Source: an uncultured virus (IMG/VR IMGVR_UViG_3300011008_000050) (taxonomy: Duplodnaviria; Heunggongvirae; Uroviricota; Caudoviricetes). Taken from it: a DNA stretch of 64,000 nucleotides. The stretch is taken from IMG/VR virus record IMGVR_UViG_3300011008_000050; one strand, 5' to 3'. Position numbers and translations under genes: made by a program. Of this stretch, positions 3,182 through 63,054 are shown in pieces (positions within the stretch are counted from its first letter, which is position 1; every line of letters begins with the position of its first letter). The notes below the pieces were generated by a model. That model saw only the letters and a program-made list of their open reading frames with translations. It searched no databases and had not been told where the DNA came from.

Positions 3182-3228
3182 ATCCTTGTGCTGTCCCTGC
3201 TGCAAAACCGCAGGGCACTTTTCATGTG

Positions 3229-3296
3229 GGTTAAAAGATAAAAGTTTGTTGCAAAAATAATGGATTATCTTTGGCGCATTGTTTTATGTTTTAACT
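3229..3296. promoter_or_regulatory. Divergent promoter pair (TAnnTTTG -7 boxes with a phage-specific upstream 17-bp box)
   Basis: + strand: GGTTAAAAGATAAAAGT (3229-3245), N20, TATCTTTG (3266-3273). - strand: AGTTAAAACATAAAACA (3296-3280), N20, TATTTTTG (3259-3252). Confidence 0.7.
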
Positions 3297-3305
3297 CAGA
3301 AGACC

Positions 3306-3866
3306 ATGTTAGGAAGTATTATAGGCGGCGCAGTCGGCGCACTTGGTGGCCTTTTTGGCTCCAGCAGTAAAAACAAGAAATTAGAGGAACAGGAGCGTCT
3401 GCTTAAAGAGCGTAAGGAAAATGCTCTCAAGAAGTATGAAGAACGCCAGGCCAGGAATGAGGACTGGTATAACCGTCGGTACAATGAAGATGCGACGCAG
3501 AGGGCTGATGCCCAGCGCTTGCTGACACTGACCGAGGATAGTATCAAGAAACGCAACAAGGCCGCTGCAGGGAAGGCTGCTGTCATAGGTGGTACGGACG
3601 AAAGTGTGGCTGCTGAAAAGGAGCGTAACAATCAGGCCATGGCTGATGCTGTCAGCCAGATTTCAGCTGCTGCCGACCAACGGAAAGATGCCATTGAGCA
3701 GCAGTATCTACAGAAGAAGGATGCGTATGAGCAGCAGTATGAGCTTAAGGAAGACAGTTATGATGACGCTCTTGCAAATTTGGCTGGTCAGAAGAAGAAC
3801 GAGTTTGATATTGCGAGCAGTATAATTGGAGGTGCTGCTTCCGGGTTGGGGATGGGTCTTGGTTAA
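3306..3866 (+). CDS. Putative DNA ejection/pilot (internal virion) protein
   Basis: Gly-rich hydrophobic N- and C-termini (MLGSIIGGAVGALGGLFG) around a coiled coil; first gene of the operon preceding the giant protein and portal. Confidence 0.55.
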   Translation: MLGSIIGGAVGALGGLFGSSSKNKKLEEQERLLKERKENALKKYEERQARNEDWYNRRYNEDATQRADAQRLLTLTEDSIKKRNKAAAGKAAVIGGTDESVAAEKERNNQAMADAVSQISAAADQRKDAIEQQYLQKKDAYEQQYELKEDSYDDALANLAGQKKNEFDIASSIIGGAASGLGMGLG

Positions 3867-3914
3867 GTTGGCCATGTCATGGTTACTACATACAGAAGAA
3901 CGATATAGGTTATT

Positions 3915-4793
3915 ATGAGTACAATTGATACGATAAACAAGGCTCTCGCTGGTGATGATGGCGTGATGTCTGAGAAACCTGTGATACAGCAGGAAGAAGT
4001 GTCTGTTACGCCTGCTGGCTCGCCAGATGGTAAGATTGAGCAGAATGGGCAAGATGGTGCATCCCATACGATGAGTTATGTGGAGATGATGCAGCAGCTT
4101 TCGCCATACAAACCTCCAACAGATGAGGAACTGGAGAGGGTGCGGAAGAAACAGAAGCGTGACGCTGTGTTTGCAGCCATCGGTGACGGGCTCTCCGCTT
4201 TCCACAATGCCTACAGCCATGCAAGGGGTGTGCAGCCGATGGCCAACCTTGGCGGTTACTCTCAGAAGGTGAGAGACCGTTACGAGCGTATGAAGAAGGA
4301 GCGTGACGAACAGGCTATGCAGTATGCGAATGCTTATATTAAAGCAGAACAGGCAGACCGTGAATCGTCACGAAATTCTGTACTGGATGCTTTGAAGGCT
4401 AAAAATCAGGATCGCTTAGAGGAGGAGACACGTATCAGGAGGGAAAAGGCTGATGCGTATATGGCGGCTCAGGCTGCGCGTGAGGAAAAGGACGAGGCTC
4501 AAGCGGCTTATTGGCAGACAAAGGCATACGCATTGGAGCAGGGTATTCCTTTGGATGAAGCTGTAAAGAGGGCTGAGGCTGCAAAGAAGAGGGCTGAGGC
4601 TCGGTTGAAAAATGTTCAGGCTGATGGTGGTGGATATGCTCCCCGCTCGGGTGTGGGTGGTTATACCACGACGGAAGAGAAGACTACGACTGACCGTCAT
4701 GGGCGGACTTCGACGAGCACCACGACGAAGACGCGAGTTCCGAATGGAGAATCTGGACAAATGAAGAAAACAATGAAGAAGATAAACTGGTAG
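3915..4793 (+). CDS. Hypothetical coiled-coil protein, probable internal virion/ejection protein
   Basis: 292-aa ORF, Ala/Glu/Lys-rich helical composition, operon context. Confidence 0.55.
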   Translation: MSTIDTINKALAGDDGVMSEKPVIQQEEVSVTPAGSPDGKIEQNGQDGASHTMSYVEMMQQLSPYKPPTDEELERVRKKQKRDAVFAAIGDGLSAFHNAYSHARGVQPMANLGGYSQKVRDRYERMKKERDEQAMQYANAYIKAEQADRESSRNSVLDALKAKNQDRLEEETRIRREKADAYMAAQAAREEKDEAQAAYWQTKAYALEQGIPLDEAVKRAEAAKKRAEARLKNVQADGGGYAPRSGVGGYTTTEEKTTTDRHGRTSTSTTTKTRVPNGESGQMKKTMKKINW

Positions 4794-4798: not shown

Positions 4799-7700
4799 AT
4801 GGCGAATGATACGAGGCTGCGCCTGTACAAGGCTCTGAATGATGCTGGTTATGACATTGGCGAGTATGATGAGTTTGACCGCAGGATGAATAATTCCGAT
4901 GACCGAGGCAAATTTTACAAGGCAGTAAGTGATGCGGGTTTTGATATAGGACCGATTGATGAGTTTGATGAGCGCATCAGGGATAGTAAGTATAAGTTGC
5001 TGATTCATGGTGTAGAGACTCCTGTCAGTGAAAAGGAGTGGCGTGAGGCTAAACGGAAAGCAGAGCGCAGGAACACTGGTGGTAATGGGTCTGACAGGAA
5101 ATCCGGGATTCAGGAAGAGGCTGAGCGGTTGCCTGTTGCTCCAACAATGGAGCAGAAGGATATGGAGGCAGCTGTTGGGCTGCGGAAACCTGGTTCCTAT
5201 CCTATTGGAAAGGATGGGCAACTGGATATACATCCTGTTTTGACGCAAAGGAGTGAAAGAATACATCAGCGCGGTATGGAGAATGCGCATGGTGACCTTG
5301 ATACGGAGCGTGAAGTGGAGTTGTCGGAAGCCTACGCAGAGCGCAAGCGACTGGAGAAAGAACTGGAGCCATACACCATGAGACAGGCCAGTCGAATCAT
5401 ACATTCGTCAACCATCCCTGGTGGTTATGCTGGAGGCCATAGTTCAGAAGAACGTGCCGACATGAAGAGACATGATGCCCTTCTTGCAGCCAAACGTCAG
5501 CTTGATGAGCGTATTGCTACACTGGAGGAAAGCCGAGACAAGAACACCAGTGGCTTTTGGCGCAACCTTTGGCGCACCGTCACTAATCCTTCCACCTGGT
5601 CATTCGGACTTATTCCCCTGAATGATGCGCTTGCCAGCAATGATGTGGCAGACAAGTTGGAGAATGGCACAGAACTGAACGAGCAGGAAGAGACCATGCT
5701 TCGGCAGATGGTGATGAATGAAGAGGCCAAGCAGAAGTATGGTGATGATAAGGGCTTCATGGCTCGTGCCGGTACCATTACAGGCGAGGCACTTCCCTTT
5801 GTGGCAGAGTTCCTTCTTACAGGCGGTTATGGTGGCGTTACCAAAGGTGTAGGTGAAGCTACAGCCAAAGGACTTGCAAAGATGACCGCCACAGATTTGT
5901 CGAAGAAAGGCCTTCGGTCATGGTTGGTGAAAAGTACAGGCACGGTGGCTGGTGATGTTGCTGGTGCCACGTTGATGGCGAATACCACAGGAGTGGCGAA
6001 AACGGCATCTGACGTGATGGAGCGGCAGAGAGGCAGCATCATACAGGACGAGAACGGAGATTACCACTTTGGCCACTATGAACAGGACGAAGACGGTAAT
6101 TCTGTCTTTGTTGATGGCGGTAAGACATGGGCGCAGTCCATCTATGAGGCTGAGGCTGCAAACACCCTTGAATATTACACGGAAATGCTTGGCAACCACA
6201 TGGAAAAGCCTTTGGGTGCCGTTGGCTCATGGATAGCCGAAAAGACCGGGCTTGGTAAGGCTGGTGCCTACCTCGTTAAGAAGCTTGGCCTTGGTGAAGT
6301 GAGCAAGGATTTGTCGCAGATTACCGCCAACGGCTACGGCAGAGCCATGAAGCATGTGCTGGAGCGCGGAGGCATTCAGGATTATCCCAGTGAGGTGCTT
6401 GAGGAAGAGGCAAACATCATCCTCAACTCCATGTTTGTAGGTGACAACAGCCTGAGTGATTTAGTGGATGGTCGTACACAGGCCGACATTTGGGGTGGCA
6501 TGTTGTTCTCCGTCGGTTTCATGAATTCCCCGGCTGTTGGTTGGCGTGGCATCCAGTCGGCTGGCTATCTGAAAACGAAACATGACATGGAGAAAGCAGA
6601 CAAGTTGGCATCCTATCGCATGACTGAAGACCGCTGGAAGCCATTGCGTGAGCGTATTGACGGAACCAGCAACGAGGATATGACCGACTTGGAGATGGAA
6701 ATCAAGCATGATGACACCATGCATGAGAATGAGAAGAAAGCCGCGTTGGATTATATCGGTCGCCTGTTGAAGTTCCGTGGTTGGAATATAGGTGCAACTG
6801 CCAAGGCGAAGGATGAGGTTGAGAACCCTGCAGCAGAACCGCAGGGCGCAGTGAGCCGTGATTTGAACGCTTCCTATATTGGTGGCTATGAGGCTGACGA
6901 TGAGCAATTGAATGACATCAGGAATGGTTATGAGTTCCAGCGTCAGCGCATCGAAGAGCTTGCCGCTGATGATATGCTTAACCAGTTGGATGCAGACCCT
7001 ATTGGCGCACTGAATTTTATTCGGAGTGGTGAGGCTTGGACGGAAGAAGAGAAGCAGACCGCCATTGATTATGTTAATGCCAAAGCCGCATACGATGGCA
7101 TGATACACCGTGTTCAGGATGATATTGACGGACGAATCGCCATGAGTGATGCGATGATTGAGAGCCGGAAGCATCATGACGATGGCATGATACATCCGGC
7201 CACCATGAAGACCGATGACAGGAAGGTTTATGTGATTGGTGGCAAGTTGGTGATGAATGAGGATGGCACGATGATAGACCACGACCAGAGTGACGAGAGT
7301 GTTATCATCCGTGATGCCGCGACTGGTGCCATTGAGTTTGCAGACCCTCACGATGTTCTTTCTACAGATGAAGCCCTTGATGCAGCTCAGGAGAAAGAAG
7401 CAGCCCAAGAAGCCATCCGTCAGCAGTATGCCCAGGAAGCCGCCAACAAGATTGACGGTGTTCTTCCTTTCAACAATGGCGATACTTATCAGGTCGTGGA
7501 CGATCAGGGACAGCAGCACACGGTGACGGTCATTCCCACTGGCACGGTCAACTCACAGGGTCAGGTGTTACAGACTGGCGACGGTGAGGTTGTCGTGTCG
7601 ATGGATGGCGGAGAGCCTGTAGCCATGAGCCGCGAGGCCATCCAGAACATGGCTGAGAATGTCAACCTTGCGAGGTTGCAGCAGTATGTACAAGAGAAGG

Positions 7701-10700: not shown

Positions 10701-13700
10701 ACTACAAGAAAGGTCATGTGAAGATTGAAGGCTTTGATGTCACTATTGAGAATCCGCGTGGCTCTGAGCGAAGCGGCACTGATGCCAATGGTCATGAGTG
10801 GCGGCAGAGGATGAATAACACCTATGGCTATATTCGTGGCACAGAAGGTGTGGATGGCGACCATATCGACGTGTTCCTCAGTGACAGCCCTGAGAGTGGC
10901 AATGTGTATGTGATAGACCAACGCAAAGCCGATGGCTCATTTGATGAGCATAAGGTGATGTATGGTTTTGGTAGCGCAGACGAAGCCCGTGCCGCGTATC
11001 TCTCCAACTATGAAGAAGGTTGGCAGGGTCTTGGTGCCATTACCGAGGTAAGCAAGGACGAGTTTAAGAAGTGGATAGATAGCAGCCACAGAAAAACGAA
11101 GCCCTTTGCCGAGTATAAGAGCGTGAAAACGTTGGGTGACACACAACTTGGCGAGGGTGCTGCTGTGGTACAGCAGCCTACGGAACAATCGGAAGAGCCT
11201 CAGCCTGTAGGCCGTGGTGTGTTCGGCAATATCTATGACCAATTCAAGGGCAAGGCCAAGGAAGCCATAGCGTTCCTACGAAAAAGAAAGGAAGGTGTAG
11301 CAAAGGGCGCACTTCATCATCGGCAAGTCGGTGACATTGATGTTGTATGGGGTGACGAGAATCGTGGCCTTGCTCATATTGACAACAAACATACAGATGT
11401 CGCAACTCGCTTGCAAGAAGTTCTCGATGGTATGAGTGTTGTAAGTACTTCCGAAAACCGTATTGTTCTTGATAGCCCCACTCATAGAGCGGTCGTTAGC
11501 AAAGATTGGTATGGTGAACCCGTGGATAACTGGCTACTGACTGCTTACGGAAAAAAGAATGGCGTTTCAGGCGGTAGTATTGACATCGTTCCTGAACCCG
11601 AAGGCAAGCAGAATGGCACAGCTCCTCTGCAAAACGCCAGTCCTTCAAATAGTGTTTCTGCTAATACGACGGACACTAACAGAACCGCTGTTGACGGCAA
11701 GCGGAATGACACTGCTACTCCGCAAAACACTGTTTCTGAGGGCAAAGGTAATGATATTTCTGCATCCGAGCAAGGAAATGCGGAAAAATCTGCTATTGAG
11801 CCAGAATTTGAGGCACGTTATCAGATTTCCCCAAAGCCCTATACTACCAAGCGCGGCAAAGTACTTGATATGCAGTTGGTGATGTTTCCTGACGAATTGA
11901 AAGATAAAGTGAACTGGACTAATGCCCGCCAGTTGGCAAAGGAATTGAAAGGTTGGTGGAGTCGTGAAGACGGTGGTTTCCTGATGCGTGATGCCGAGAC
12001 AGCCCAGCAACTTGCCGACACCGTTCTGTCTCAGATTGGCAACAATGATGCAATGGAGCAGCAACTTCGTGACGAACGCCTTTCGTTGTCGGACATGGCT
12101 CTTGCTACTGACGAGGCACAGAATGTTGAGGCCGTTGATGCACAACAGGAAGCCGATGCATTGACTCAGCAGCCTCCACAAGAGGCGCAGGGAAGTATGG
12201 CAGATAATGGGTACGGTGCCAACAATACTTTGGTGAGCCGTGACCGATACGAGGAATTGAAGGAGCGTATGCGCAAGAAGATGTTGGGACAGCTCAACAT
12301 GGGCATTGACCCTGAAATCCTTGCTATTGGCACAGAAATGGCTGCATTCCATATTGAGGCAGGAGCGAGGAAGTTTGCCGACTTCGCCAAAAAGATGATT
12401 GAAGACCTTGGCGATGCCATCCGTCCATATCTGAAATCCTTCTATAACGGTGCAAGGGAGTTGCCCGAAGTGGGGGATGCAGGGTATAGTGAGGAAATGA
12501 GTCCTTATGATGAGGTAAGGGCGTTTGATGTTCTTTCTCTCGGTGGCGAAACCACCGAGCACAGTACACCAACGGTGTTTGAGAGAGCCGAGGAGGTGAC
12601 AAAGGAACTGGATGCTGAGCGTCAGGCAGAGGAAGCCAAAGAGAAGATTGCGGAGTCGAAGCCTAAGACCACCCCCAACCCACTTCGCCCGGCCACAGAA
12701 GCCGACTTTGACAATGCCCATCCCGTTGTTTACTACGATGGCAAGCCCTACGGTGTTATTGCCGTTATGCATAGTGGTGAGCAGATTAGCGCAACCCAAT
12801 TCAGCCAGCCCCACATAGAAAGTATTGTGCTTACCAATGGCAAGAGTGTGAATCTTGACAATCTGCAAGTTTTTGATGAAGCCACCGCAGCGACCCAAAG
12901 AATACGGGAAATTGCAGAAAAAAACTCGATATCGGAACAAAAACGTGGAAAATCCACGCCATCAAAGAAAAAAAGAGTATCTTTGCAGCAGGAACCCGAC
13001 CTTTTCGGCAACTCCTTCAATGAAGAATCCACAAGTGTAGAATCTCAAAACAAAAACGATAATGATAGACTACGAAGAACTGAAACGGCAGTACGAAGCA
13101 GCCGAGGACAAGGAGAAGGAGCGCCAGCGCCAGCGCAGACTGATAGAGGTGGAGAACTACCGTCGGAGTCTGGAGGCTCGCAACTTCAGCAAGGAGCAGA
13201 TAGACAGGGAAGTGCGGGATTACAAGATAGACGCAGCCCTGATGGATTATCGCAGGGAGAATCAGTTGAGTCCAGGAGAGATGACAACGGAGGACTGGAC
13301 TCAGGTTTACAAGAACGCCGGAATGACGGACGAAGAGATAGCAGCGTACAGGGCAGAGATGAGCAAGTACGCAGCAGCTCTGGACGACCCGTTGGATATG
13401 TATCGCAGTTAACAGAAAATCTTTCAGGAGTGCCTAACGGAGATACACGTGGCTCCGTTAGGCCGGGCAGTTCAAATATTCGACGCAGTGAAAGCGAGAG
13501 AGGCAAAAGTGACGCGCCTCTCTCGCCAGTGAGCAACCCCAAGAACTTACGGAATAACCATGCGGAACGTGGCAAGGACTACGCTCCCCGTGGTGTTGAT
13601 GCCCGCATTGATGCCAACATCAAGGCCATTGAGTTGATGAAACAACTCATGGATAGTGGTGAGCAAGCCACCCCTGAACAGATGGCCGTGTTACGTCAGT

Positions 13701-16700
13701 TCAGCGGTTGGGGTGGTCTTGGCAAGGCCTTTGAGAACTATACCGCCCACACCAACGGCAAGCCTACCCCTCAGTATTTGCGTGAGTTGTTAGGTGAAGA
13801 AGCCTACCAACAGGCCAATATGAGCCGTAATAGTGCCTACTACACCCCTGCCAATGTGATTGATGCCCTTTGGGACGTAGCCCGTGCAATGGGCTTCAAA
13901 GGTGGCAGGGTGCTTGAAGGTAGTGCTGGTATCGGCAATATCCTTGGCCTCATGCCCACCGACATGAGTGAGCGCAGCGACATCCATGCCGTTGAGATAG
14001 ACCCAACGACGGGCAACATCCTTAGTCTGCTCTATCCTGATGCGAAGGTCGATGTGCAGGGTTTTGAGGCGACACAGGTAGAGAACGGCAGTGTCGATTT
14101 GGCTATTACCAATGTTCCGTTTGTCACAGGCTTGCGTGTGAATGACACGACAGGCGACAAAGACCTTAGCAAGAAGTTCCACGACATTCACGACTTCTGT
14201 ATTGCCAAGAATGTGCGTAAGTTGAGAGAGGGCGGCATGGGTATCTTCATCACCTCATCAGGCACACTTGACAACAGCGCGAGACTAAGGCAGTGGATTA
14301 TTCAGGAAGGCGGTGCTGATGTTGTAGGTGCTTTCCGCCTGAACAACGAGACTTTTGGCGGTACTGGTGCCACTTCTGACATTATAGTTATCCGCAAGCG
14401 AGTGAATGGCAAGGTGTCACCCCATGCCATTGACGTACTATCCACCACTGGTGAACGGACAGCCGAGTATGACACAGGGGAGAGCAAGCGCGTGAAGGGT
14501 GAGGAAATCCCCATCATCAAGCAGTTGTCGATGGACTATAACAGTTACTTTGTTGAGCATCCTGAAATGATGGGTGGCGAAATGCACTTCGGCTTTGAGA
14601 AGGGCGAGACATTCAGGCCAACAAGCAAGGCACTCTATCCCGTGAAAGGAAAGAACCAGGCAGAGTTGTTGAAGTCATGGGTAAGTAGTTTTGCAGGTAA
14701 AGAATGGGTGAATGCTGAAACCTCACGGCAGAACCGTGAGGCACACGACGTGGTGTATGAAGAGCTTGGCGAAGGTGTGAAAGAGGGCAGCATGGTTGTG
14801 AGCAATGGCCAGTTGTGCATTGCCCAGCGCGGCAAGGCTGTTCCCTTGGCCGTTAATGCCAACAAGGTTAAGGGTCATAGCAAGGTAGAGTGCTTTGAAG
14901 CCTATCAGGGTATCAAGAAAGCCCTTTCCGACTTGCTCCAGTACCAGACCGACGTTGAGGATGATTCGGGTTTGCAGCCTTTGTTGAAAGCCCTGAATAA
15001 AGCCTACGACGATTTTGTGAAGACCTATGGGCATCTTCACAAGAACACCTCTATCTCCTTCCTAAAGAGTGACGTTGATTTTGCCAACATCCTTGCTTTG
15101 GAGAAATTCAGCGAGAGAGGCGACTTGAAGACAGGTAAGCGCATACAGGAGTTTGGCAAAACCGACATCTTCAGTCAGCGAGTTGTGGAAAAGGAGAAAG
15201 CTCCAGAACCAACCAACGTGAAAGATGGTATCATTGCCAGTATCTATGTTTATGGTAGGGTTGATGTTCCTTGGATAACGGAGCAACTCAGCGGCAAAAC
15301 TGCTGAGCACACTACGCTCACAGAGGACGATGTGAAAGCCGAGATTGTCAGGTCTGGACTTGGCTTTGAAAATCCCGTCACCCGTCAGATGGAAGTGAGT
15401 TATGAGTATCTGAGTGGCAATGTGCGTGAGAAGTTGGCACAAGCTACCCAGAATAACAGCAACGGCCAGTATGATGCCAACATCAAGGCACTGGAGAAAG
15501 TGATTCCTGACAACATTCCTGCCCACCTTATCGACTTTAGCATTGGTTCCTCATGGATAGACCCCAAGTTGTACGAGGAATATGTGAAGGAGAAAACCGA
15601 CATTGACGTTACCTTCACTTCTGCTGGTGGCACATGGTTCATGCGGACACCTTACTCTGTTAGTGAACAGAAGAACCGTGCGATGGGTGTTGTGAGTGAA
15701 TTGCTTCACAAGACCATCATGGGTACGCAACTCATTGAAGCCGCCATGCAGAACAAGACCATCACCGTTAGCGAGACGCACAAGAAATGGGATGGCAGTA
15801 CCGAGACCATCACCGACAAGGAAGCCACGCAAGCCTGTTCCAACAAGATAGACGAGATACGTCAGGACTTCAAGGAGTGGGCAAGAGCGAAGATGCAAAG
15901 TGACCCTGCCATGAGTGAGCATATTGAGCGTATCTATAATGACATGTTCAATAATTATGCGCCCATGAAGATTGAGGATACTTTTGTTCCTATTCATTTT
16001 GCTGGTGCCAGCAAGAAGATAACCCTTGACCCTCATCAGAGTCATGCCGCGATGCGTGCCGTTTTGCAGCCCGTGATGCTTGCGCATGAAGTTGGTGCTG
16101 GCAAGACTTTCACGTTGATAACAGCTGCGATGGAAATGCGCCGCCTTGGTACAGCAAAGAAGCCCATGATAGTTGTACAAAATGCAACAGTCGGACAGTT
16201 TGTTGAGAGTGCCAAGGAGTTGTACCTAAGTGCCAAGGTGTTGACTATTGAAGAAGCAGACCGCACGGCAGAGGGCAGAAAGAACTTCTATGCCAAAATC
16301 AAGTATAATGATTGGGACATGATAGTTGTACCTCAGAGTGTCTTTGAGCGTATTCCTGACAGTGAAGAGCGTCAGATGAAGTTCGTTCAGGATAAGATTG
16401 AGGAAAAGATGCTGGTGCTGGAGCAGATGCGCGATGCCGACCCTGACAGCAGCAGTTGGATTGTGAAGCAAGCCGAGAAGGAAATCAACAAGTTGGAAGA
16501 CGAGTTGGCCGGCCTGACGGATTCCATCAGCAGCAAGCGCAAGGAGCGTGACGAGAAGAAAGAGGCCGTGACCCGTCAGAATGCCGAGGTGAAAGCGTTG
16601 GAAATGCTCGACCGTCAGACCGACGATGTTGAAAACTTCGATGATATGGGCATTGATGCCATCTTGGTAGATGAAGCCCACGAATATAAGCACCTTGGCT

Positions 16701-19700
16701 TTGCCACAGCTATGCAGCGAGGCGTGAAGGGTGTTGACCCCTCTTATAGCAAGAAGGCGCAGGGTGTCTATTTGAAGACTCAGGCCGTGTTGGAAAAGAA
16801 CAACGGTCGTAATGTTGTTTTTGCTACTGGCACCCCCATCAGCAACACCGCAGCCGAGATCTGGACTTTCATGCGTTACTTGATGCCAGCCGACACGATG
16901 AAGGAATACGGCATCTATTATTTCGATGATTTTGTGAGGAACTTCGGCAACCTTCAACAAATGCTTGAGTTTACGACAAGCGGAAAGTTCAAGGAGAGTA
17001 ACAGGTTTGCAGGTTATGTGAATCTTCCTGAGCTTGTGCGTATCTGGGCAGGTGTTGCGGACACTATGACTCAGAAGGAGATTGAGGAATACAGGAAAAA
17101 GATGGGTAAGCCAACGAAGATTCCGCGCACCGAATTGTTATATGACAATGGCGACAACAAGGCCGAAGACATCTATCTGCCTCAGACGAGAGCTTTACGC
17201 AGTGTGATGAAGTATGTCAAGAAGAGGTTGGATGATTTTGACAAGATGAGCGGCAAGGAGAAGAAGGAAAACAGCCACATTCCTTTGACGATGTACGGTA
17301 TTGCTAAGGCAGCAGCCGTTGATGCCCGTTTGGTTGTGAGTGATGCAGCCGACGAACCTCAGAGCAAGACCAATGAAGCCGTGCGTCAGACTCTACGTAG
17401 CCTCCGCGAAACGGAGTCCTACAGCGGAACGGTTGCCCTGTTTGCCGACAATTATCAGAACAAGAAGAGTGGCTTCAACCTCTATGAAGACATCCGTGAG
17501 AAACTGATAGCGCAGGGCGTTCCAGCTGAGCAGATTGTTGTCATGAAGAGCGGCATGAGCGTTAAGAAAAAGCTGGAAATCTTTGACAAGGTGAACCGTG
17601 GCGAGATTCGTGTCATTATGGGCAGTACCTTTACGCTTGGCACTGGTGTGAACATACAGGAGCGTTTGCACACCCTCATTCATTTGGATGCCCCTAACCG
17701 TCCTATGGACTATACACAGCGCAATGGCCGTATCTTGCGACAGGGCAACTTACATAAAGAAATGGGCAAGCCTGTGAGAGTGTTGCGTTTTGGTGTTGAG
17801 GATAGTTTGGACGTGACCGCCTATCAGCGTTTGAAGACGAAGGGAGCCATTGCCGACAGCATCATGAATGGCAAACAGATGATGAGCAATTCGATGGAGA
17901 ACCGTGTACTGGAAGAGGAAGAAGATGTTTTTGGTGATACCGTTGCGCAGTTGTCCGGATCTGAGTATGCCATGCTGAAGAACCAGGCCGAGAAAGACGT
18001 TCGCAAGTATGAGGCCAAGAAGAAGCAGTACCAGGCCGACCAAACGTATTGCCACAATGAGATTCCACGGTTAGATGGTGAAATCAGGGCATGGAAAGAG
18101 CGGTTAGACAAGTACCGCAAGAACCTTGCTATTGTTGAGGCCGTGCCTCAACATACAGAACCTTCTATTACCGTAGGCAAGCAGACCTTCCCATCTATTG
18201 AGGCAATGGCCGACTTCATCAAGGAATATAACAAGAGCATCAAGGAAGCCGAGAACGATCTGAGGGACAATCCATCATTGCACTCACAGACCCGTCGGCT
18301 GACGGTGAATGTCGGTGGCATTGACTTTGTGTTTACTACAGAGCAGAATGTAGAGACCAAGGAAGACCAAGGCACCCTGTTCAGTGCTGTTCGCAGGAAG
18401 ATGACCTATTCCTGTGAAGCCCTTGGCCTTACCGATGTTCCTGTTCGCCAGTCTTTGCTCCGTGAAGGTCTTGAAGACATTGTGAAGAATGTTATCAGTG
18501 GTCAGGACTTCCGCGAGGGCATTGAGCGTAGTGAGCGTATCATTGATAAGAATGAGAAGTCTCTCGCCCAAGTCCGTGAACGTCATGGTAAGCCGTTTGA
18601 GTTTGAAAAGGAACTGGAACAGGCACATGAGCGTTTTGACGAATATTCCGAGTTGATGAAGAAGGAACTGGAAGAGAAAGAAAAGAAGTATGCCGAAATG
18701 GATGCCGATGTGGAGGACGTTGATGTTAATGAAGCTGCAGAGGTTGAGGATGAGGATACGGTAGGTGATGAAGATGTGCGGTTCAAGGATGGCGGAGGAC
18801 GTGATGAAGGTGTGGCGCAGGTGCGCAGACGTTTTGACGAGCTTAACAGTCAGTATTCTGGTAAGGCATTTGATGTTGTTGTGCTGGATGAGTTGTCGGA
18901 TGATGAGGTGCTGGATTTGCTTGGTGCTACAGCAGAGGAAAGGGAAGAAATCACTCCAGAAGAAGTTGAAAAGGTAAGAGATTGGTTAAAGAATGGAAAA
19001 AGATATGCTTCTTATAATTCTTTGACAGGAAAAATCATTATCTTTGCCGACAAAGTTCCAGAAGGTAAGGAAGAGGAGGCTTTCTTCCACGAGAATATTC
19101 ATGGTGTACTGCGTGACTTGTATGGTGATGGTGTGCGCCCTGTAGCAGAACTTTTCTGGGAGATAGCCCCTGATAATGGCCTTGTGAGCCGGGACTTTGT
19201 CAAACGAAACTACGAGTCTGCCAAGCAGAAGGAAGAGTATTTCGTTTACTGGCTTAGCCGTGCTATGGTAAAAGGCCGTGTAGATGAGGAACTTGATTTG
19301 CTTGGCAAAGAAGAAACTAATATAAAAGACTATGGACAAGGAACAGAAGAAAATGGAGAAGCCAATCGACCCGAGGTACAGGAAGAAGAAGTCGGAAACT
19401 CTTCTGGAATGGGTTCAGAGACTGGAGAAAGACGGCGTGATAGAGTTCTTCGGGGAGTTCGATTAGAATCCAGTTCTGTCAGAGGAATCAGGGATGTTGT
19501 AGTCGGCATTCTTAATTCAATTGGCTATGAGCCGTCACTGGAGGCAGAGCGTCGGTTGGATATGGATAGCGGCGTTAATTCTGCCACAGGCATTCCTGGC
19601 GGAGCATTGAGCCGTTTGGCTGGTTCTTATGAGCCGAGGACAGCGACTCGGCGTTATACACGGGCTGAGCAGTCGGCTTACGTGGAGCGTAAGCTGAAGC

Positions 19701-24100: not shown

Positions 24101-24101
24101 C

Positions 24102-47037: not shown

Positions 47038-47078
47038 TCCTGCAACAAAAACGCTGGGCACTGTAATAGCAAGGGACT

Positions 47079-47594: not shown

Positions 47595-47665
47595 AGCCAG
47601 CGGCAGAACCGCTGGGCACAGTGACACCACTTAGCGGCAGAACCGCTGGGCACAGTGGCAAATTT

Positions 47666-50898: not shown

Positions 50899-51331
50899 GA
50901 GGCCGTAGTATTTTGTAGTAGGTGAATGGTTTTCCGTCGGCAGAACCGACGGGCACAGTGGCTGTTTCGACGGATAGTTTGACAGGGTGGTCGTAGGGTA
51001 TTCCGTAATCGTAGAAGATGCGATTGACGGTAGGGCAGAGAGATTCAAAGCCGATGGAGCGGTGCTTGCTGTTATACTGGATGTCGGCCAGGCATGTGGG
51101 CTGCTGGATGTCGGGATTGAGTGTGAAGGCATATATGCCAGTTCCGGCAGAGCCGTCACCTACGGAGAACATGAAGACCTTTGCCTGTTCTTGGTTCATC
51201 ACGTCCATGTGGTCAAAGAGGGCACGGGAGAGGGTGACGGAGTTGTCGGACGGGTCGGCAATGACATAGAGGGAGCGGTGACGATACCATCGCCACACAC
51301 CTAATAGCCAAAGACGGAATTTTCTAATCAT
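50879..51331 (-). CDS. Hypothetical protein
   Basis: 150-aa ORF just downstream of a boxed promoter. Confidence 0.65.
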   Translation of the reverse strand: MIRKFRLWLLGVWRWYRHRSLYVIADPSDNSVTLSRALFDHMDVMNQEQAKVFMFSVGDGSAGTGIYAFTLNPDIQQPTCLADIQYNSKHRSIGFESLCPTVNRIFYDYGIPYDHPVKLSVETATVPVGSADGKPFTYYKILRPHDITAS

Positions 51332-51335: not shown

Positions 51336-51380
51336 CGAAGATAATCTGAAAGGGTGAAACGGTTGTTTTATGTTTTAACT
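51336..51380 (-). promoter_or_regulatory. Promoter with 17-bp upstream box
   Basis: - strand AGTTAAAACATAAAACA-N20-TATCTTCG (one mismatch in the -7 box). Confidence 0.6.
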
Positions 51381-51405
51381 CTCGATGGCAGAACCATCGA
51401 ACACA

Positions 51406-51624
51406 CTAATAGTCCTTGTGTGAACGGAAGGAAACGGTCTCAATGTAGAGAAACGAGCGGGTGGACTCAATTTCAAGACGGTGGCGCATTGCATCATCCT
51501 TTGAGCGGTGGATGAATGACGTTGCCTCACAGCGGTTTGTGCCGCGTGTGTTGACGATGTTCACATAATACTTATGCCCGAAGATGTGGGCAATGATGGA
51601 TTGCAGTACTGTTTCTTGTGCCAT
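51406..51624 (-). CDS. Hypothetical protein
   Basis: 72-aa ORF in the minus-strand operon. Confidence 0.6.
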   Translation of the reverse strand: MAQETVLQSIIAHIFGHKYYVNIVNTRGTNRCEATSFIHRSKDDAMRHRLEIESTRSFLYIETVSFRSHKDY

Positions 51625-57534: not shown

Positions 57535-57593
57535 TTTGTTTTTTTGAATTTAATTGTTATTGACTGGTCGCCATGACATGGCGACATACTTAA

Positions 57594-58028
57594 CTACTCA
57601 TTAGCCGCCTTGCGCTGGACGGTGAAAAGAGTTGGCTGGCGCAGTTCCTCGCGTGTTGCCGGACGTGAGGAAACGAGGATTCCTTCTGCATTGTAGAAGC
57701 AAGCCATCTTTTCCTCTCGCTCGATGAAGCAATAGCACTTCTCGCGCACCGTCTTACCTTTGGACTTGATGTCAGCAAGTAGAGCCGTGCGTGTTTCTTT
57801 GAGCGGTTTCAGTTCAAGGTTCATGTTTGCACGATAATCCTTGATGTCTTCTTCGATGTCATTGATACGGATGCACGTCTCGGAAAGTTCAGTCTTCTTC
57901 CTTGCCAGTTCATCAGAATCAAATGCTTTGTGGTAGTCCATTTCCACCACGCTGTCTGCATTGTCGATGAGGAAGTTCTTTCGGGCTTCAAGGTCGGCAA
58001 TGTCCTGTCCTAATACTTTTTGAATCAT
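57594..58028 (-). CDS. Hypothetical coiled-coil protein
   Basis: 144-aa ORF. Confidence 0.7.
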   Translation of the reverse strand: MIQKVLGQDIADLEARKNFLIDNADSVVEMDYHKAFDSDELARKKTELSETCIRINDIEEDIKDYRANMNLELKPLKETRTALLADIKSKGKTVREKCYCFIEREEKMACFYNAEGILVSSRPATREELRQPTLFTVQRKAANE

Positions 58029-58084
58029 ACTTAAAAATTTTTATTGGGTTATTACTTCCATGCGGTAAAACCGCACGGCACACT

Positions 58085-58357
58085 TTACTTTACCTGTTCT
58101 TTCAGTTCCTTGCAGGGAATGAACTTCACGACCTTACGTTCAGGTACGGTGACAGAGGTTCCACGGGTGATGTTGCGGGCAGTCTTGGCGGCACGCTGCT
58201 CAATGCGGAATGTTCCGAATCCACGGAGATAGATGTTTTCTCCACGGAAGAATGCCCTTGTGGCAGAATGCATGAGTGCTTCGATGGCTTCAAGAGCCTG
58301 AGACTTCGTAAGTCTTGTGTTGCTGACCATTTCGTCAGCGAGGTCATTTTTTGTCAT
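58085..58357 (-). CDS. hup: HU/IHF-like DNA-binding protein
   Basis: MTKNDL...LRGFGTF...ARNITRG...VP..KVVKF.P.KELK. Confidence 0.9.
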   Translation of the reverse strand: MTKNDLADEMVSNTRLTKSQALEAIEALMHSATRAFFRGENIYLRGFGTFRIEQRAAKTARNITRGTSVTVPERKVVKFIPCKELKEQVK

Positions 58358-58544: not shown

Positions 58545-60013
58545 GATGTTATTGTTTTCTCGTCGGCAAAACCGTCGGGTACAGTGTTTTTTTCTGTTTC
58601 GTCGGCAAAACCGTTGGGCACAGTGAATAATGAGGTGACCAGTTCGTCGAAGTAGGCTTCGGAGGTTGGAATGTCATCGTCGGAGGCCATGATTTGGCTT
58701 GCGATGGACTTTTTACGATGGATGATGTTGTAGAGCGCGAAGTCGATGGTTGCCCTGCCAATGAGGTAGTAGCAGGTCACGTTGTCACGTTGTCCGATGC
58801 GGTGTGCACGGTCTTCGCACTGGCAGCAGTCGGCATAGGTCCATGGGAATTCCACGAAAGCGACATTGGACGATGCTGTGAGGGTGAGGCCGACACCAGC
58901 AGCCTTGATGGAGCAGATGATGAGCCTGGCATGGCCGGACTGAAAGGCATCGACGGCAGCTTGTTTTGCCGTGAGGCTGTCACGCCCTGTAACACGGACG
59001 GCATGAGGGAAGGCACGGCAGAGGGCATCCACGATGTCGTGATAGGAGCAGAAGATGATGAGCTGCTTGCCTGATGCGAGGAAGTTTCGGGTAAAGTCGA
59101 TGGCCTGTTTCACTTTTCCCATGGCTGAGAGTGAGCGTAGTGTCATGAACTTGACCAGTGCTTCCATGCGCATTTTTCGCCGTATCTCAACATCGGTGCA
59201 CTCCTTGTACTGGCGAAGGTATTCAGCGAGATTGGTGGCAGCAAGGTTGTATTCGTCGCGGTTGGAAATATCGACGTAGAGGTCGCAGCGTGTCTTTTCG
59301 GGCAGTTCCGTCAGGACTTTTGCCTTTTCCCTGCGGATGAGGCAGGAGGAATAGAGCCGTGATGAAAGTTCGTTCAGGTTCTCGCCGTCGCCATACATGG
59401 AGAGGAAAGCTCCCTTTCCACCGAACTCGCTCAGGCGGTTCATGATGGAGAGTTGTGAGACGAGGTCTTCAGGACGGTTGACCACAGGTGTTCCTGACAG
59501 GAGTATGCACCAGCGTTTGCCTGTTGCAATGCCCTTGGTGAAGATGGTCTGCCCGGTAGAGGGGTCTTTCACACGATGTGATTCGTCGATGATGATGGAC
59601 TTGAAGAGTTTGATGTGTGGGCAGAAGACAACGTCTTTGAGGCGAAAGGACTTGCCGCCCTTGATGTCCCAGACGAAGAACTTGCGCAGGGATTCATAGT
59701 TGACAATGGCGACATGGTGCATCTTCATTTGCAGCAGGTACGGCCAGGTGGTGCGGGTGTTATTGTCGAGAACGAGGGCTTTCTTGTCGGTGAACTTCTC
59801 GAATTCGCGCTGCCAGTTGATTTTTAGCGAGGAAGGACAGATAACGAGGCATGGATAGGCGTTGGCTGTATCTACGATGCCGATGGATTGCAGTGTCTTG
59901 CCAAGGCCTGGTTCATCGCCGATGATAAGGCGTTGCTTTTGAAGCCCGAAGCGTATGCCCTCCAGCTGGTAGGGGTAGGGCTGCACTTTTAGATGATGTT
60001 GAAGTTCTGTCAT
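58535..60013 (-). CDS. SNF2/HARP-like helicase
   Basis: DEPGLGKT, DESH, LSGTP and QCEDRAHRIGQ motifs. Confidence 0.92.
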   Translation of the reverse strand: MTELQHHLKVQPYPYQLEGIRFGLQKQRLIIGDEPGLGKTLQSIGIVDTANAYPCLVICPSSLKINWQREFEKFTDKKALVLDNNTRTTWPYLLQMKMHHVAIVNYESLRKFFVWDIKGGKSFRLKDVVFCPHIKLFKSIIIDESHRVKDPSTGQTIFTKGIATGKRWCILLSGTPVVNRPEDLVSQLSIMNRLSEFGGKGAFLSMYGDGENLNELSSRLYSSCLIRREKAKVLTELPEKTRCDLYVDISNRDEYNLAATNLAEYLRQYKECTDVEIRRKMRMEALVKFMTLRSLSAMGKVKQAIDFTRNFLASGKQLIIFCSYHDIVDALCRAFPHAVRVTGRDSLTAKQAAVDAFQSGHARLIICSIKAAGVGLTLTASSNVAFVEFPWTYADCCQCEDRAHRIGQRDNVTCYYLIGRATIDFALYNIIHRKKSIASQIMASDDDIPTSEAYFDELVTSLFTVPNGFADETEKNTVPDGFADEKTITSWK

Positions 60014-60044
60014 ATTCTTCTGTTGGGTTCTGACGGCAGAAGCG

Positions 60045-60725
60045 TCAGGCGCAGTTTAAGTTAAGACACCAATACTGGAAAGCCAGTTCTTCATACTTGG
60101 CACGTCCACGCTCATAGGTGGCATCGCCACGATGTATGAAGTGCTTGAAGACACGGTTTGTTTTCTTGCTGATGGCGTAGATGAAGTCACGGTCGGTGCC
60201 GGCAATGTCCATGTACCAGGCGCGGCTGCGGTCCCAGTCGAAGAAGTCAATGGCTTCTTCAAACTCCTTCTGTGTTGAGGCGAAAGTGGTTTTGAGGTCT
60301 CCGCCAATGTTGACACCAACCTTTTCTTTCGGTAGCCACCAGTCCCATTTGCACCGTGTATCAAGCATGAAGGGAAACTGACTATACTCAAATCGTTGGT
60401 TCAGACGCACCATGATGTGCTGCGTGTTGGCTTCATTGAGGACGATATTGAGGAACTGGTCTTTTATCGCTTCCCTTCTAAGTGCACCGAACATTTCCTC
60501 TGCATGGCGAAACTCGTCTTCCGTGTACTGTTCATCATCGACGGTGAGGGTGTAGAAGTTGACCCGTTTCGGCTCTGTGATGATGGCATCGACGAGGTTA
60601 CCGAATCGGAAGGCTGTCTCGCGGTCTCCGAACTGGAGGCGAGGGTGCAGAAGGTTTTTGAGGGTGGTGAGGTCTGAGTTGGAGACCTCACTACGGTGAT
60701 AGTATGTGTCGGGGTTGGAGCTCAT
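60045..60725 (-). CDS. PD-(D/E)XK exonuclease (RecE/DUF3799-like)
   Basis: SNSDL, FG..VD, RCKWD, DLKTT and RAWY motifs; near recT. Confidence 0.7.
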   Translation of the reverse strand: MSSNPDTYYHRSEVSNSDLTTLKNLLHPRLQFGDRETAFRFGNLVDAIITEPKRVNFYTLTVDDEQYTEDEFRHAEEMFGALRREAIKDQFLNIVLNEANTQHIMVRLNQRFEYSQFPFMLDTRCKWDWWLPKEKVGVNIGGDLKTTFASTQKEFEEAIDFFDWDRSRAWYMDIAGTDRDFIYAISKKTNRVFKHFIHRGDATYERGRAKYEELAFQYWCLNLNCA

Positions 60726-60768
60726 GCGCTTTCTTTATTTATCCCTGCGGCAGAACCGCAGGGCACAG

Positions 60769-61965
60769 TTACTTTGCTTTGACTTCGTCTTCGTAGGAGA
60801 TGTGTTCGGACTTGATGATTGTTCCTTCTTTTGCCATCTTTTCGCAGAATGTGATTTGCTTCTTGAATATCTTTGTCAGTTCTTCGATTGGAAGTTTGCA
60901 GCCTTCGGAAAGCCACCACATGCTGAATATTTCAGGGAAAGCTTCGGCATTGAGGGGAACGAGTCTTTTTTTGACTTGTGTCTTTGGCTGGTAGGCTGGG
61001 GCGGAGATTTGGGCTGCATCGAACAATCCTTTGATTTCAGTCTGTTTGGCTTGCATTTCTGCTTCCTTTCTCTGTTGTTGTTCCCGCTTTGCGCGTTCTT
61101 CGGCCAGCCTTGCAGCTTCTGCTGCATCTTTTTCGGCCATTTCCTTGCGGATGCGTTCTGCTTCTTCTGCGTTTGCGCTTGCGGCTTTTTCCAGTTCCTG
61201 GCGCTTAGATGGCATGAGGTCGAGGATGCGCTGGCGTTCAGCTGTCATTGCCTGTTCGAACTCTTTCTTGAAGGATGGTAGTAGTTGCTGGAGTGTGTCT
61301 TCACGTATCTGCTTCAACTCGTCTGCATCTATGAGGCCAGCCAGTGGGAGCGGGGCGGAAGAACGTACTGTCTGTGTGTAATCTTCAGGGAAAAAGTGGA
61401 CTGTATTTTGAATTTCAGCCAGACGCTGTTCGTAGTTGTCGAGGCTAACGGTTGTGAACAGTCCCTGCAGCCCTTCGATGTGGAAATCAAGAAAGCCTTG
61501 GAAGTCATTGCGGTAGTCGCTATCGCAGTCGGAGCGGTACTTGGCTTTGGCTTGTTCTATTTGCTGGCGACGCATGGCTTCACGCTGGCGTTGCGCTTCT
61601 TCTTCACGTTTCTTGGCTGCGTATCGGTTGCGTTCCTGCTGGATGAGGAAGGGGACGGTTCCGCTTTTTGTAAGGTCGATGGCGTTCTCCATGCCTGTGA
61701 ACTGGGTGCGGATGTCGTCGAAGAGTTTTGTGAGCGGTGAACGCTTGTCGTTCATCTTTCGGATAGTCTTTCGGGCTTTCTCTATGAAGATGGCGGCTTG
61801 CTGGTCGAGTTCGTCGGTCATGCCTTGTTGCATCTTTGCCAGCAGTTGTTTGCCAGCTTCGATGCAGCGGTCACGGCTGACAGCGTTTTCGTTGAAGGCG
61901 GCTGGAGCCGAGGACACAATGGTGTCGATGTTTTCCTTTCGGATGATTGCGAAATCTGTATGCAT
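60769..61965 (-). CDS. Coiled-coil phage protein (recombination module)
   Basis: 398-aa helical protein between recT and the exonuclease. Confidence 0.65.
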   Translation of the reverse strand: MHTDFAIIRKENIDTIVSSAPAAFNENAVSRDRCIEAGKQLLAKMQQGMTDELDQQAAIFIEKARKTIRKMNDKRSPLTKLFDDIRTQFTGMENAIDLTKSGTVPFLIQQERNRYAAKKREEEAQRQREAMRRQQIEQAKAKYRSDCDSDYRNDFQGFLDFHIEGLQGLFTTVSLDNYEQRLAEIQNTVHFFPEDYTQTVRSSAPLPLAGLIDADELKQIREDTLQQLLPSFKKEFEQAMTAERQRILDLMPSKRQELEKAASANAEEAERIRKEMAEKDAAEAARLAEERAKREQQQRKEAEMQAKQTEIKGLFDAAQISAPAYQPKTQVKKRLVPLNAEAFPEIFSMWWLSEGCKLPIEELTKIFKKQITFCEKMAKEGTIIKSEHISYEDEVKAK

Positions 61966-61983
61966 GATTGTATGTGTGTTAAG

Positions 61984-62988
61984 TTAGAATGTTCCATCAT
62001 CTTCACCTGCAGCACCAGCAGAAGGGTCAACTGTCACACCTGCTGATGTGTCGGCAGGGTTGCCGAAGGGTGTATTTGTGTCTTGTGGCATGACCTGGTC
62101 TTGCTGTCCTTCCACATGATAGAAATCATCAATGTTGGCCTGTTCCTCTTCTGGCTGCTGTGACTCCAGTTCGGCCTTTCCGATACGCATTTTCGGATAG
62201 GTCTTGAAGGCGTGTTTGATGAGTTTGGCACAGAGGAAGCCGCTGTCTATTTTACCGTTGTTGGCTGTGTAGAGTGCATTGGGAACTTCTATATACTTGT
62301 TGGCATTGGCATCCCACTTCTTGTTTGCCTTTCCGGAATAGGTCAGCAGACGCATCCAGTCTTCTTCCAGCATGACTGCGTAGTCGATGGAACCGTCTGA
62401 GCGAGTGATGCGGAGGTAGGCGGCAATGACGTGGTTTGACGTGTGAGGGAGGTGGCAGGTGTAGGATACTTGCTTTCGTCCGTCCTGGTCGGAAAACGAG
62501 AAGTTGTCTTCCTCATAGACGAGGACGGGATTGTCGGCATGACGAATCTGCCCGGAACGTGCGCGAAGCACCAATTCGCCGTAGCCGCTGATGGTAAGCA
62601 CGAGGCGACCTTCATACTGGTACATGATGTTGCCCTGACGGTCACGCAGGGGCTGTCCGCTGGTGTCGAGCTTTGGGACGTTGGTCTTGTAGTTGCGTCC
62701 CATGAGGTAGCAGAGTGCACGGGCACCTGGTTCTAATGACAGGCCGCAGACGGCGAGGTCGATGAACGATGTGAAGATGGAGAACTTGGATGCCTTCTGC
62801 AACTTCTCATCATCACGAAGGATGGCATTGAAGTGGATGCTTTCGCGCTGATAGGCTGGTTCTCCGCTACCAGCACCCCAAAGGGTGTCGTGAATCTGGA
62901 TGAAGCGTGTGCGCACGGCTTCTGACTGGATGATGTCGAGGGGGTTGAGCTTGTTGATTTGCTCAATGGTAAGTTGAATGCTACTCAT
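61984..62988 (-). CDS. recT: RecT-like single-strand annealing protein
   Basis: GLSLEP...CYL, ISGYGEL.L..RSG and K.IKHAFK..P motifs, acidic tail; start at ATG 62988. Confidence 0.8.
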   Translation of the reverse strand: MSSIQLTIEQINKLNPLDIIQSEAVRTRFIQIHDTLWGAGSGEPAYQRESIHFNAILRDDEKLQKASKFSIFTSFIDLAVCGLSLEPGARALCYLMGRNYKTNVPKLDTSGQPLRDRQGNIMYQYEGRLVLTISGYGELVLRARSGQIRHADNPVLVYEEDNFSFSDQDGRKQVSYTCHLPHTSNHVIAAYLRITRSDGSIDYAVMLEEDWMRLLTYSGKANKKWDANANKYIEVPNALYTANNGKIDSGFLCAKLIKHAFKTYPKMRIGKAELESQQPEEEQANIDDFYHVEGQQDQVMPQDTNTPFGNPADTSAGVTVDPSAGAAGEDDGTF

Positions 62989-63054
62989 GATGTTTTGTTT
63001 TTTTATTGTTAATACTGGCTGCGGCAGAGCCACAGCATACTGAACACTAATTGT

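Follow-up and report, generated by a model that had tools for sequence, protein, structure and literature searches.

What are the short hairpins that recur, all written on the same strand, along the genome of an uncultured tailed phage? The window, i.e. the whole 64,000-nucleotide stretch analysed here (IMG/VR record IMGVR_UViG_3300011008_000050), contains a temperate tailed phage, or prophage, of the Prevotella type that measures about 62 kb. An earlier note on this DNA had described more than 30 covarying hairpins with a fixed loop and a 3′ tail, spread genome-wide on the + strand, and had taken them for a directional DNA-level signal of the phage, with a mobile element resembling bacterial repetitive extragenic palindromes (REPs) as the alternative. 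We find two hairpin families of uniform polarity, one of which also occurs in Prevotella-type chromosomes, and sites that are empty in a close relative of the phage. With moderate confidence, we interpret the hairpins as mobile elements, related in habit to REPs and to Rickettsia palindromic elements (RPEs), that would insert strand-specifically into single-stranded DNA at replication forks.

The unit of the first family (family A) is made of an 8-bp covarying stem, a CARAA loop and a 3′ CACAGT tail. Its core, GGCARAACC, occurs 27 times in the window against 1.14 expected (none of 100 shuffles reached 27); 23 of the occurrences are on the + strand, and the four on the − strand are isolated 9-mers with no hairpin around them. 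When a hairpin was required (CARAA loop and five or more pairs), there were 24 matches on + and none on −, one of the 24, at 16178, appearing unrelated. Twenty-seven copies align without gaps and support the 8-bp stem: 91.2% of the cells are paired versus 77.2% after shuffling (reached in 0 of 500 trials), pairing falls to 27–44% if the partner is slid, and six of the eight stem pairs vary on both sides, with 35 compensatory cells. As single-stranded DNA, the copy at 24098 is predicted to fold with −10.7 kcal/mol (z = −4.9). A covariance model built on 27 seeds (R1; both strands, filters off, E<0.01) recovers 34 copies, seven of which are not seeds (27774, 29092, 33030, 34678, 35853, 36795 and 47034). 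All 34 are on the + strand, the best minus-strand match having E=1.2, so that the similar numbers of minus-strand copies that the earlier note regarded as fatal to its reading are not there. Every individual copy it had placed is real, including those in minus-strand gene blocks (51382, 58058, 60030 and 60743).

Nineteen of the 34 copies lie in non-coding DNA, which represents 6% of the phage (p = 5e-15), and typically touch a stop codon; the other fifteen lie inside open reading frames (ORFs). Six of the latter are in a giant ORF, in the sense direction and in all three reading frames: 6822..6856 (R1 score 39.3 bits, read as PAAEPQGAV), 12535..12569 (39.4 bits), 14717..14751 (38.2 bits), 15283..15317 (38.8 bits), 20406..20440 (41.4 bits) and 21346..21380 (40.4 bits). 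An intergenic copy (3191..3225, 34.2 bits) precedes this ORF and another one stands immediately 3′ of its stop codon (24098..24132, 48.0 bits). Antisense copies are found in the large terminase gene (27774..27808, weak, 19.0 bits) and at its 5′ end (28812..28846, 38.9 bits), and a weak copy in the minus-strand ORF 28841–29410 (29092..29126, 23.8 bits). The capsid gene has a tandem pair upstream (30745..30778, 30.6 bits, and 30779..30813, 42.2 bits) and a copy just 3′ of its stop (32623..32657, 46.2 bits); a weak sense copy follows in ORF 32728–33222 (33030..33064, 18.3 bits). Stop codons are abutted by the copies at 33220..33254 (37.3 bits), 33900..33934 (34.4 bits), 34311..34345 (43.2 bits) and, weakly matching, 47034..47068 (22.6 bits). 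Two further tandem pairs (34678..34712, 40.5 bits, a non-seed copy, with 34713..34746, 28.0 bits; 35108..35142, 45.2 bits, with 35143..35176, 32.0 bits) are followed by two weak sense copies in a 1975-aa ORF (35853..35887, 23.6 bits; 36795..36829, 18.3 bits), and another pair sits at a convergent gene junction (47592..47626, 43.7 bits; 47630..47657, 31.2 bits). The minus-strand gene block contributes a copy within an ORF (50929..50963, 39.8 bits), two intergenic copies (51377..51411, 37.6 bits; 60739..60773, 48.1 bits), one just downstream of the minus-strand HU-like gene (58054..58088, 36.0 bits), one overlapping the 3′ end of a minus-strand gene (60025..60059, 32.7 bits) and a tandem pair whose first member occupies, in antisense, the last codons of the SNF2 helicase gene (58555..58589, 36.6 bits, read as TVPDGFADE; 58594..58628, 35.9 bits). 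The copies at 24098 and 60739, 36 kb apart, have an identical 27-nt core. The spacing of the copies along the genome is irregular.

The tandem pairs reported in the earlier note amount to five, all direct, with members 34–39 nt apart (30745/30779, 34678/34713, 35108/35143, 47592/47630 and 58555/58594), and chimeric arms are seen in them. The two members at 34678–34746 have swapped arms: each 5′ arm pairs with the 3′ arm of the other copy, and the fold predicted is a single long hairpin with two stems (−14.6 kcal/mol) instead of a separate hairpin per copy.

Most spacer copies of either gene block stand directly 3′ of a stop codon, and the palindromic stem folds equally well on either strand (−10.7 and −11.0 kcal/mol), as would suit a hairpin that acts at the 3′ end of RNA and stabilises, processes or attenuates phage transcripts, like REP and phage intercistronic hairpins. 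Such a role nevertheless seems quite unlikely to us. The loop and tail keep one genome strand regardless of gene direction, ten of the 34 copies lying in minus-strand gene regions and yet being on +, and almost half of the copies are inside ORFs. A T-run is present within 15 nt downstream of only two copies, in agreement with the absence of U-tails stated earlier, and an A-run upstream of none. Rfam gives no family at gathering score anywhere in the window, the only hit being a chance snoRNA match (E 0.19) in the region 30600–35300. Finally, the predicted fold at the 32623 copy shows a second GC stem followed by a T-run 3′ of the hairpin, so the copy next to the capsid gene has a canonical terminator of its own; this and the lack of U-tracts indicate that the hairpin itself is not a terminator. 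The terminator in question (32661–32694), a canonical GC-rich stem plus T-run directly after the hairpin, is kept in three related phage loci (L155, L156 and L257).

A second family (family B, corresponding to hairpin families D8 and D10), which the earlier note missed, has an 8-bp covarying stem, a 3-nt loop and a 3′ tail reading ATACGGAAC, ATACNGAAC or CTACGGAAC (tail consensus (A/C)TACNGAAC). Its covariance model (R2) finds 12 copies at E<0.001, 12:0 on the + strand, and the sole minus-strand match below E=0.01 is the mirror image of the 40419 copy. Two copies are in the giant ORF (11155..11191, 46.2 bits, with tail CTACGGAAC; 18130..18166, 28.2 bits, non-seed), which stays open with these two and the six family A hairpins in frame. 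The others are located just 3′ of the portal gene stop (26118..26154, 46.5 bits), at the 3′ end of the terminase gene (26679..26715, 45.3 bits), at 28931..28967 (46.0 bits), in ORF 32728–33222 (32910..32946, 44.0 bits), at 40419..40455 (23.3 bits, weak tail), just 3′ of the stop of ORF 41250–41828 (41826..41862, 45.5 bits), at 42211..42247 (30.3 bits), in a minus-strand 902-aa ORF (48362..48398, 46.1 bits), between genes of the minus-strand block (57563..57599, 26.8 bits) and upstream of the RecT-like gene (63014..63050, 43.1 bits). This last one is the right-end hairpin (~63020–63045) that the earlier note had counted with the others: it is a true hairpin, but of family B, with a 3-nt loop and the tail ATACNGAAC. 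Altogether, 46 of 46 hairpin elements in the window are on one strand, irrespective of the direction of the genes. A third hairpin family, CCCTGCGC-YGAC-GCGCAGGG followed by CACTGT, is seen in the related phage contig L255 (at 3271, 5326, 5491, 15518 and others), on the capsid-sense strand only and twice paired 30 nt upstream of a family B copy.

The polarity extends beyond the window. Family A is always on the capsid-sense strand: 7 of 7 copies in 80 capsid-related viral loci, 14 of 14 in the viral records G012, G013, G014 and G016, and 17 of 17 in metagenome loci, two of which are the same contigs as G013 and G014. The record G002 has 5:0 family A and 9:0 family B copies across its plus- and minus-strand gene blocks; in G003, family A stands at 6:0 and family B at 1:1. 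Families A and B share the same polarity in 6 of 6 listed records (the window, G002, L257, L255, G012 and G014). One way to obtain such uniformity is unbiased insertion followed by selection, if inverted copies caused lethal inversions or cruciforms and the first orientation therefore persisted. The phage does encode a RecT-like protein and an exonuclease, assembly contigs join distant copies (30777 to 32630; 30810 to 35147), and the chimeric arms of the tandem pairs fit such exchange. Independent avoidance of inverted repeats would not predict, however, that two unrelated families adopt the same polarity in all six records, nor does it account for the use of the same strand in all capsid-related records or for the replication-strand bias of bacterial copies described below, and we regard this explanation as unlikely.

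Comparison with related phages reveals gain or loss of individual copies. The 80 capsid-related loci (1.34 Mb) carry their 7 family A copies in 5 loci, and 75 of 80 have none. A looser pattern, any hairpin followed by CAYNNT, matched mainly noise and conserved coding sites in 80 relatives and was set aside. One relative, L257 (capsid protein 95% identical, DNA 86–91% identical over the block), has 2 copies versus 18 in the window. With respect to L257, the window displays clean extra segments at 24098 (31 nt), at 28812 (a 25-nt gap in L257 and a 21-nt gap in L156), at 34713, where L257 has the first member of the tandem pair (34678) and lacks the second, and at the pair 35108/35143, both members of which are absent; L257 also has a gap at 21346. 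There is no consistent target duplication at the clean empty sites. Two candidate features of the insertion process were discarded. A fold-back scheme, with the upstream target serving as template of the 3′ arm, is rejected for family A because both arms are absent from the L257 empty sites at 24098, 34713 and 35108. An A-rich 5′ flank was considered as a target-site consensus and rejected: the flank is T-rich in the minus-strand block and thus follows local composition, with no target motif. At four sites (27774, 29092, 30745 and 32623) relatives carry other hairpins, of family B or of the third family; L257 has a family B hairpin at 27774, where L155 lacks the site, and variant hairpins occupy the 32623 site in L155, L156 and L257. 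In two other samples the segment 32911–33091 is replaced. Five genomes with prophage relatives were searched, and none carries family A.

Where else, then, does the element occur? An exact-pattern scan of one genome per species gave at least 122 loci matching the family A pattern. Among the 80 matches listed, about 37 are in Prevotella, Prevotellaceae or Bacteroidales, mostly from ruminants and often on several contigs per genome; the remaining listed matches are single and in unrelated phyla, as chance predicts. The covariance model detects at least 24, 45, 23 and 45 copies in four Prevotella/Prevotellaceae-type genomes, these counts being lower bounds, as 150 of about 1000 candidates per genome were scored; on the same scale of scoring (150 of about 1000 candidates), Segatella hominis has no family A copy. 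Under stricter filters, family A turned up in 5 of the 151 genomes sampled from the bacterial family, which places the element in a sub-lineage. Scans of contigs from two of the element-rich genomes yielded 38 copies in 362 kb (G010) and 40 in 392 kb (G008).

In these bacterial contigs, 67 of the 78 copies are inside ORFs, 58 of them antisense to the gene and nine sense (68 of 78 are antisense if spacer copies are assigned to the nearest gene). Fifty-four of the 58 antisense in-ORF copies use a single frame and read T/S-V-x-x-G-S/F-A-x-x, the peptide varying in such a way that the DNA palindrome is preserved. The ORFs concerned are ordinary genes, encoding Rho, phosphoglycerate mutase (iPGM), MetH, TatD and glycoside hydrolases, as well as a protein resembling non-ribosomal peptide synthetases, an OPT transporter, an aminotransferase and a PIF1 helicase; spacer copies exist too, for example between grpE and dnaJ. 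In the G010 TatD gene, a tandem pair adds exactly 72 nt (24 aa) in frame, and three orthologues lack it, indicating that the copies are insertions and are translated, like RPEs. In another TatD orthologue (locus L151, genome G007), a different in-frame repetitive insertion, with a repeated ...NVQCSM... peptide, lies in another TatD loop and suggests that these Prevotella genomes have more translated-repeat families. Bacterial contigs mix orientations (7:3 in C38 and 6:2 in C41 of G010), and two inverted pairs are present in G010 (C41 18221/18263; C38 192419/192486).

What determines the orientation of a copy was approached through GC skew at third codon positions, resolved into two terms, one for the strand (r, replication-type) and one for coding; bacterial replication direction is thus taken from skew alone, on fragmentary contigs. 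In bacterial contigs with |r|≥0.03, the ratio of G-rich-strand to C-rich-strand copies is 43:10 for antisense and 2:5 for sense copies, and 13 of 14 contigs show a preference for the G-rich strand (p = 0.002); 18 bacterial copies lay in contigs without a clear r. In the window r is +0.186, the + strand being G-rich in both gene blocks, and the coding term, −0.148, resembles that of the bacterial contigs; in relatives with few copies, r ranges between −0.016 and +0.078. These skew results suggest that the strand on which the element is written is the G-rich one in bacterium and phage alike. In three distant prophage relatives on long contigs, the capsid-sense strand coincides with the host G-rich strand in two.

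These data bear directly on the directional signal proposed by the earlier note, and also on a broader version of it in which a polar DNA signal is shared by bacterium and phage, acting in lagging-strand priming or restart or in the manner of Chi or of the FtsK orienting polar sequences (KOPS), the phage being selected for dense, oriented copies. Family A polarity is strict in every phage record with copies, two or three families obey it at once, and the bacterial 43:10 bias is similar in size to that of KOPS (90% and 86%; PMC3603311). The maintenance of different hairpin families at the same position at four sites in relatives, and the enrichment in phage spacers, can also be read as signs of function. 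Against this stand the translated 36–72-nt insertions in bacterial genes, which do not resemble the evolution of an oligomer signal, the presence of the motif in so few of the 151 genomes sampled, the irregular spacing, and the 75 of 80 related loci without copies together with the empty sites of a close relative, from which it follows that the phage family does not need the hairpins. We therefore consider a shared polar signal possible but doubtful. As for the original proposal, the hairpins are indeed a DNA-level, strand-polarised feature independent of gene direction; what these loci, the empty sites and the chromosomal copies leave unsupported is a phage-specific signal for replication, packaging or ejection. 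The alternative put forward at the same time, a REP-like mobile element, fits the bacterial dispersal and the empty sites better.

KOPS, 8-mers that evolve by point mutation, reach a co-orientation of 90% in chromosomes, and the figure for lambdoid prophages is 86% (Bobay et al., PMC3603311); they share with the hairpins the property of being strand-polar host-chromosome sequences that are also co-oriented in temperate phages. The hairpins differ from them in being inserted blocks, 100% co-oriented per phage and 5–25 times denser in the phage than in the sampled bacterial contigs. A G-rich-strand bias of the kind that would be expected of KOPS- or Chi-like motifs is seen in the bacterial contigs, but the copies are inserted blocks, present in 5 of 151 sampled genomes.

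Among mobile elements, the closest parallels are with three classes. Like REPs, the hairpins are short GC-rich stem-loops with many copies, covarying stems and several families per genome. REPs are extragenic, usually form inverted doublets, carry a 5′ GTAG or CGTC tag, flank the gene of a REP-associated tyrosine transposase (RAYT) and are believed to be processed, in single-stranded form, by HUH Y1 enzymes, of which a subclass specific to Bacteroidetes (TnpA_REP), with atypical structures, has been described (PMC6006769; PMC3733652). By contrast, family A is mostly intragenic in bacteria and is found in ORFs for 15 of its 34 phage copies, the conserved tag is 3′ (CACAGT in family A, ATACGGAAC/ATACNGAAC in family B), all five pairs in the window are direct, unlike the inverted REP doublets known as REPINs, and there is no linked RAYT gene in the bacterial genomes, which are incomplete metagenome-assembled genomes (MAGs). 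RPEs are gene-less palindromic repeats located in frame in unrelated housekeeping genes and translated as a conserved peptide (PMC10969869). The family A hairpins of the Prevotellaceae genomes share this habit, demonstrably in tatD and probably in rho, iPGM, metH and glycoside hydrolases. They depart from RPEs, which measure about 150 bp and belong to Rickettsia (PMC10969869), in having a unit of 27–37 nt with a single hairpin, a fixed loop and a 3′ tail, and in occurring in Bacteroidota and phages; their one-strand arrangement in phages has no counterpart in the sections of PMC10969869 consulted, where the polarity of RPEs is unmentioned. Finally, IS200/IS605 elements excise from and insert into the lagging-strand template (PMC6006769), an orientation bias tied to replication like the one proposed here; the hairpins differ by the lack of a transposase gene, cargo or distinct end pair, and their mechanism is deduced from strand statistics. 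The elements thus resemble REPs and RPEs, and in their strand bias perhaps IS200/IS605, but fail defining features of each.

The sharing of small elements between Prevotella and its phages is already published: MITEs (miniature transposable elements with inverted repeats), which are non-autonomous, are common to prokaryotes and viruses, Prevotella phages being named (PMC11602168). Those MITEs measure 50–800 bp, carry terminal inverted repeats and duplicate their targets, and in bacteria 90.4% lie between genes (PMC11602168). The elements described here are single hairpins of 27–37 nt, with no consistent target duplication at the clean empty sites. The words "strand" and "orientation" are absent from the main text of that paper as consulted. 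Literature searches on Prevotella palindromic or in-frame elements, Bacteroidetes REP/RAYT systems, phage same-orientation stem-loops and Prevotella MITEs returned no description of the element or of its one-strand arrangement.

If the hairpins are mobile, which enzyme moves them? The earlier note saw no HUH enzyme in the window, and PHROGs and Pfam scans agree: no HUH or transposase gene is present there except a tyrosine integrase. A Y1 transposase (PF01797) is encoded in two of the four element-rich genomes, which are incomplete MAGs. Its loci have no flanking R1 match, and one has hairpins of its own, which are different; the RAYT link to family A was therefore not found in the element-rich genomes, and the HUH part of the REP-like alternative stands without a connection to the element. 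Two other ORFs of the window, of 902 and 397 aa, have no sequence match in the PDB. Look-alikes of the 902-aa protein (Atlas) are crAss "muzzle"-type virion proteins (score 0.92), which we take as a lead only; the same search was uninformative for the 397-aa protein, and neither ORF pointed to an enzyme.

Taken together, the results lead us to favour the following scheme. Two families of tiny gene-less mobile palindromes, 27–37 nt long, would be native to a rumen Prevotella lineage and would also colonise its phages. They would move as, or into, single-stranded DNA, their asymmetric loop and 3′ tail being read on one strand, the exposed, G-rich lagging-strand template. A phage or prophage genome replicated one way, whether by rolling circle or, in the prophage state, by the fork of the host, may then collect all copies in one orientation. 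Selection would decide which copies survive: in the compact phage, mainly those in short spacers just 3′ of stop codons; in bacterial genes, mainly antisense, in-frame copies read as a small neutral peptide (T/S-V-x-x-G-S/F-A-x-x).

Several observations do not sit easily with insertion at replication forks. Besides the absence of a mobilising gene in the window and the unrelated surroundings of the Y1 loci, gene direction predicts the orientation of bacterial copies more strongly than GC skew does, six copies of G010 contig C35 are on the C-rich strand, and G012 and G013 have r near 0 yet uniform polarity. Bacterial genes hold few sense copies (9 of 67), whereas the phage has many (nine in ORFs plus those in spacers of plus-strand genes), a difference that requires an extra assumption; a possible reason is that a sense copy might harm the RNA of an expressed gene, while prophage genes are silent. 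The occurrence of different hairpin families at the same four sites of related phages may mean either insertion hot spots or a retained function. Last, the family A density in the phage, 0.55 per kb, is about 5–25 times that of the sampled bacterial contigs, among which the phage's own host does not figure; of the equal abundance in host chromosomes that the earlier note associated with an ordinary host REP, the dispersal is thus found in Prevotella/Prevotellaceae chromosomes and the equality is not. Both this density and the absolute polarity would be explained if the hairpins belonged to a new class of strand-reading elements of Bacteroidota, i.e. mobile hairpins recognised on the G-rich single strand by non-Y1 machinery and perhaps serving also as polar landmarks (priming, restart, Chi-like); we put this forward as a tentative idea with a rather small chance of being right.

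The genes around the hairpins, called by PHROGs and Pfam scans, are those of a temperate phage. They include a tyrosine integrase gene (993–2522), the single giant ORF of 6433 aa (4799–24100), which encodes a "polyvalent" virion protein with LPD14, LPD38, MuF_C, ddrB-ParB, InPase, PBECR1 (nuclease) and SNF2 (helicase) domains, a portal gene (24161–26116), the large terminase gene (26713–28902, minus strand) and the gene of an SU10-type capsid protein (30863–32620). The minus-strand gene block (47783–63093), 3′ of a diversity-generating retroelement (DGR), encodes a methyltransferase, a replication initiator, a VRR-NUC nuclease, the HU-like protein, the SNF2 helicase, the exonuclease and the RecT-like protein. 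The virus record G001 is approximately the same DNA as the window, offset by 174 bases.

The DGR is complete (40936–41121, 42010–42195 and 41992–43629). Its variable repeat is the 186 nt at the C-terminus of the 1975-aa protein, which has a lectin-like end (Lcl_C/Fib_succ); template and variable repeats are 92% identical, with 15 of 15 differences at template adenines, and the reverse transcriptase gene comes after the template repeat. This template repeat is bracketed by the family B hairpins at 41826 and 42211, the latter 16 nt past it. A small minus-strand ORF (54222–54818) shares its lectin-like C-terminal fold family (Fib_succ_major/Lcl_C) with the DGR target and may be a second target, and a relative's DNA near 54136–54437 matches the L257 DGR region in inverted orientation. 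Elsewhere, the AT-rich stretch upstream of the integrase gene (380–670) contains repeats of a GTGCAGAA(C/T)G motif that may be arm-type or operator sites, and a 14-nt (7+7) tandem array of AAAATTGAGAATTG-like units (43925–44027) stands directly before ORF 44013–44504. ARAGORN calls two tRNA genes on the − strand (63159–63243, "SeC" tca; 63701–63777, Arg-CCT), where Rfam has no tRNA match at gathering score; these may be phage tRNAs that have degenerated, or else remnants of attachment sites.

If strand-specific insertion is the correct explanation, this 62-kb phage genome is a record of it, with every one of its 46 copies pointing the same way, and the mechanism would be directly testable. The hairpins would then also provide a sequence marker linking uncultured rumen phages to Prevotella hosts, and they would carry a warning for annotation, such phage hairpins not being terminators. 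For the bacteria, it would mean that Bacteroidota have elements with the RPE-like habit of translation within housekeeping genes.

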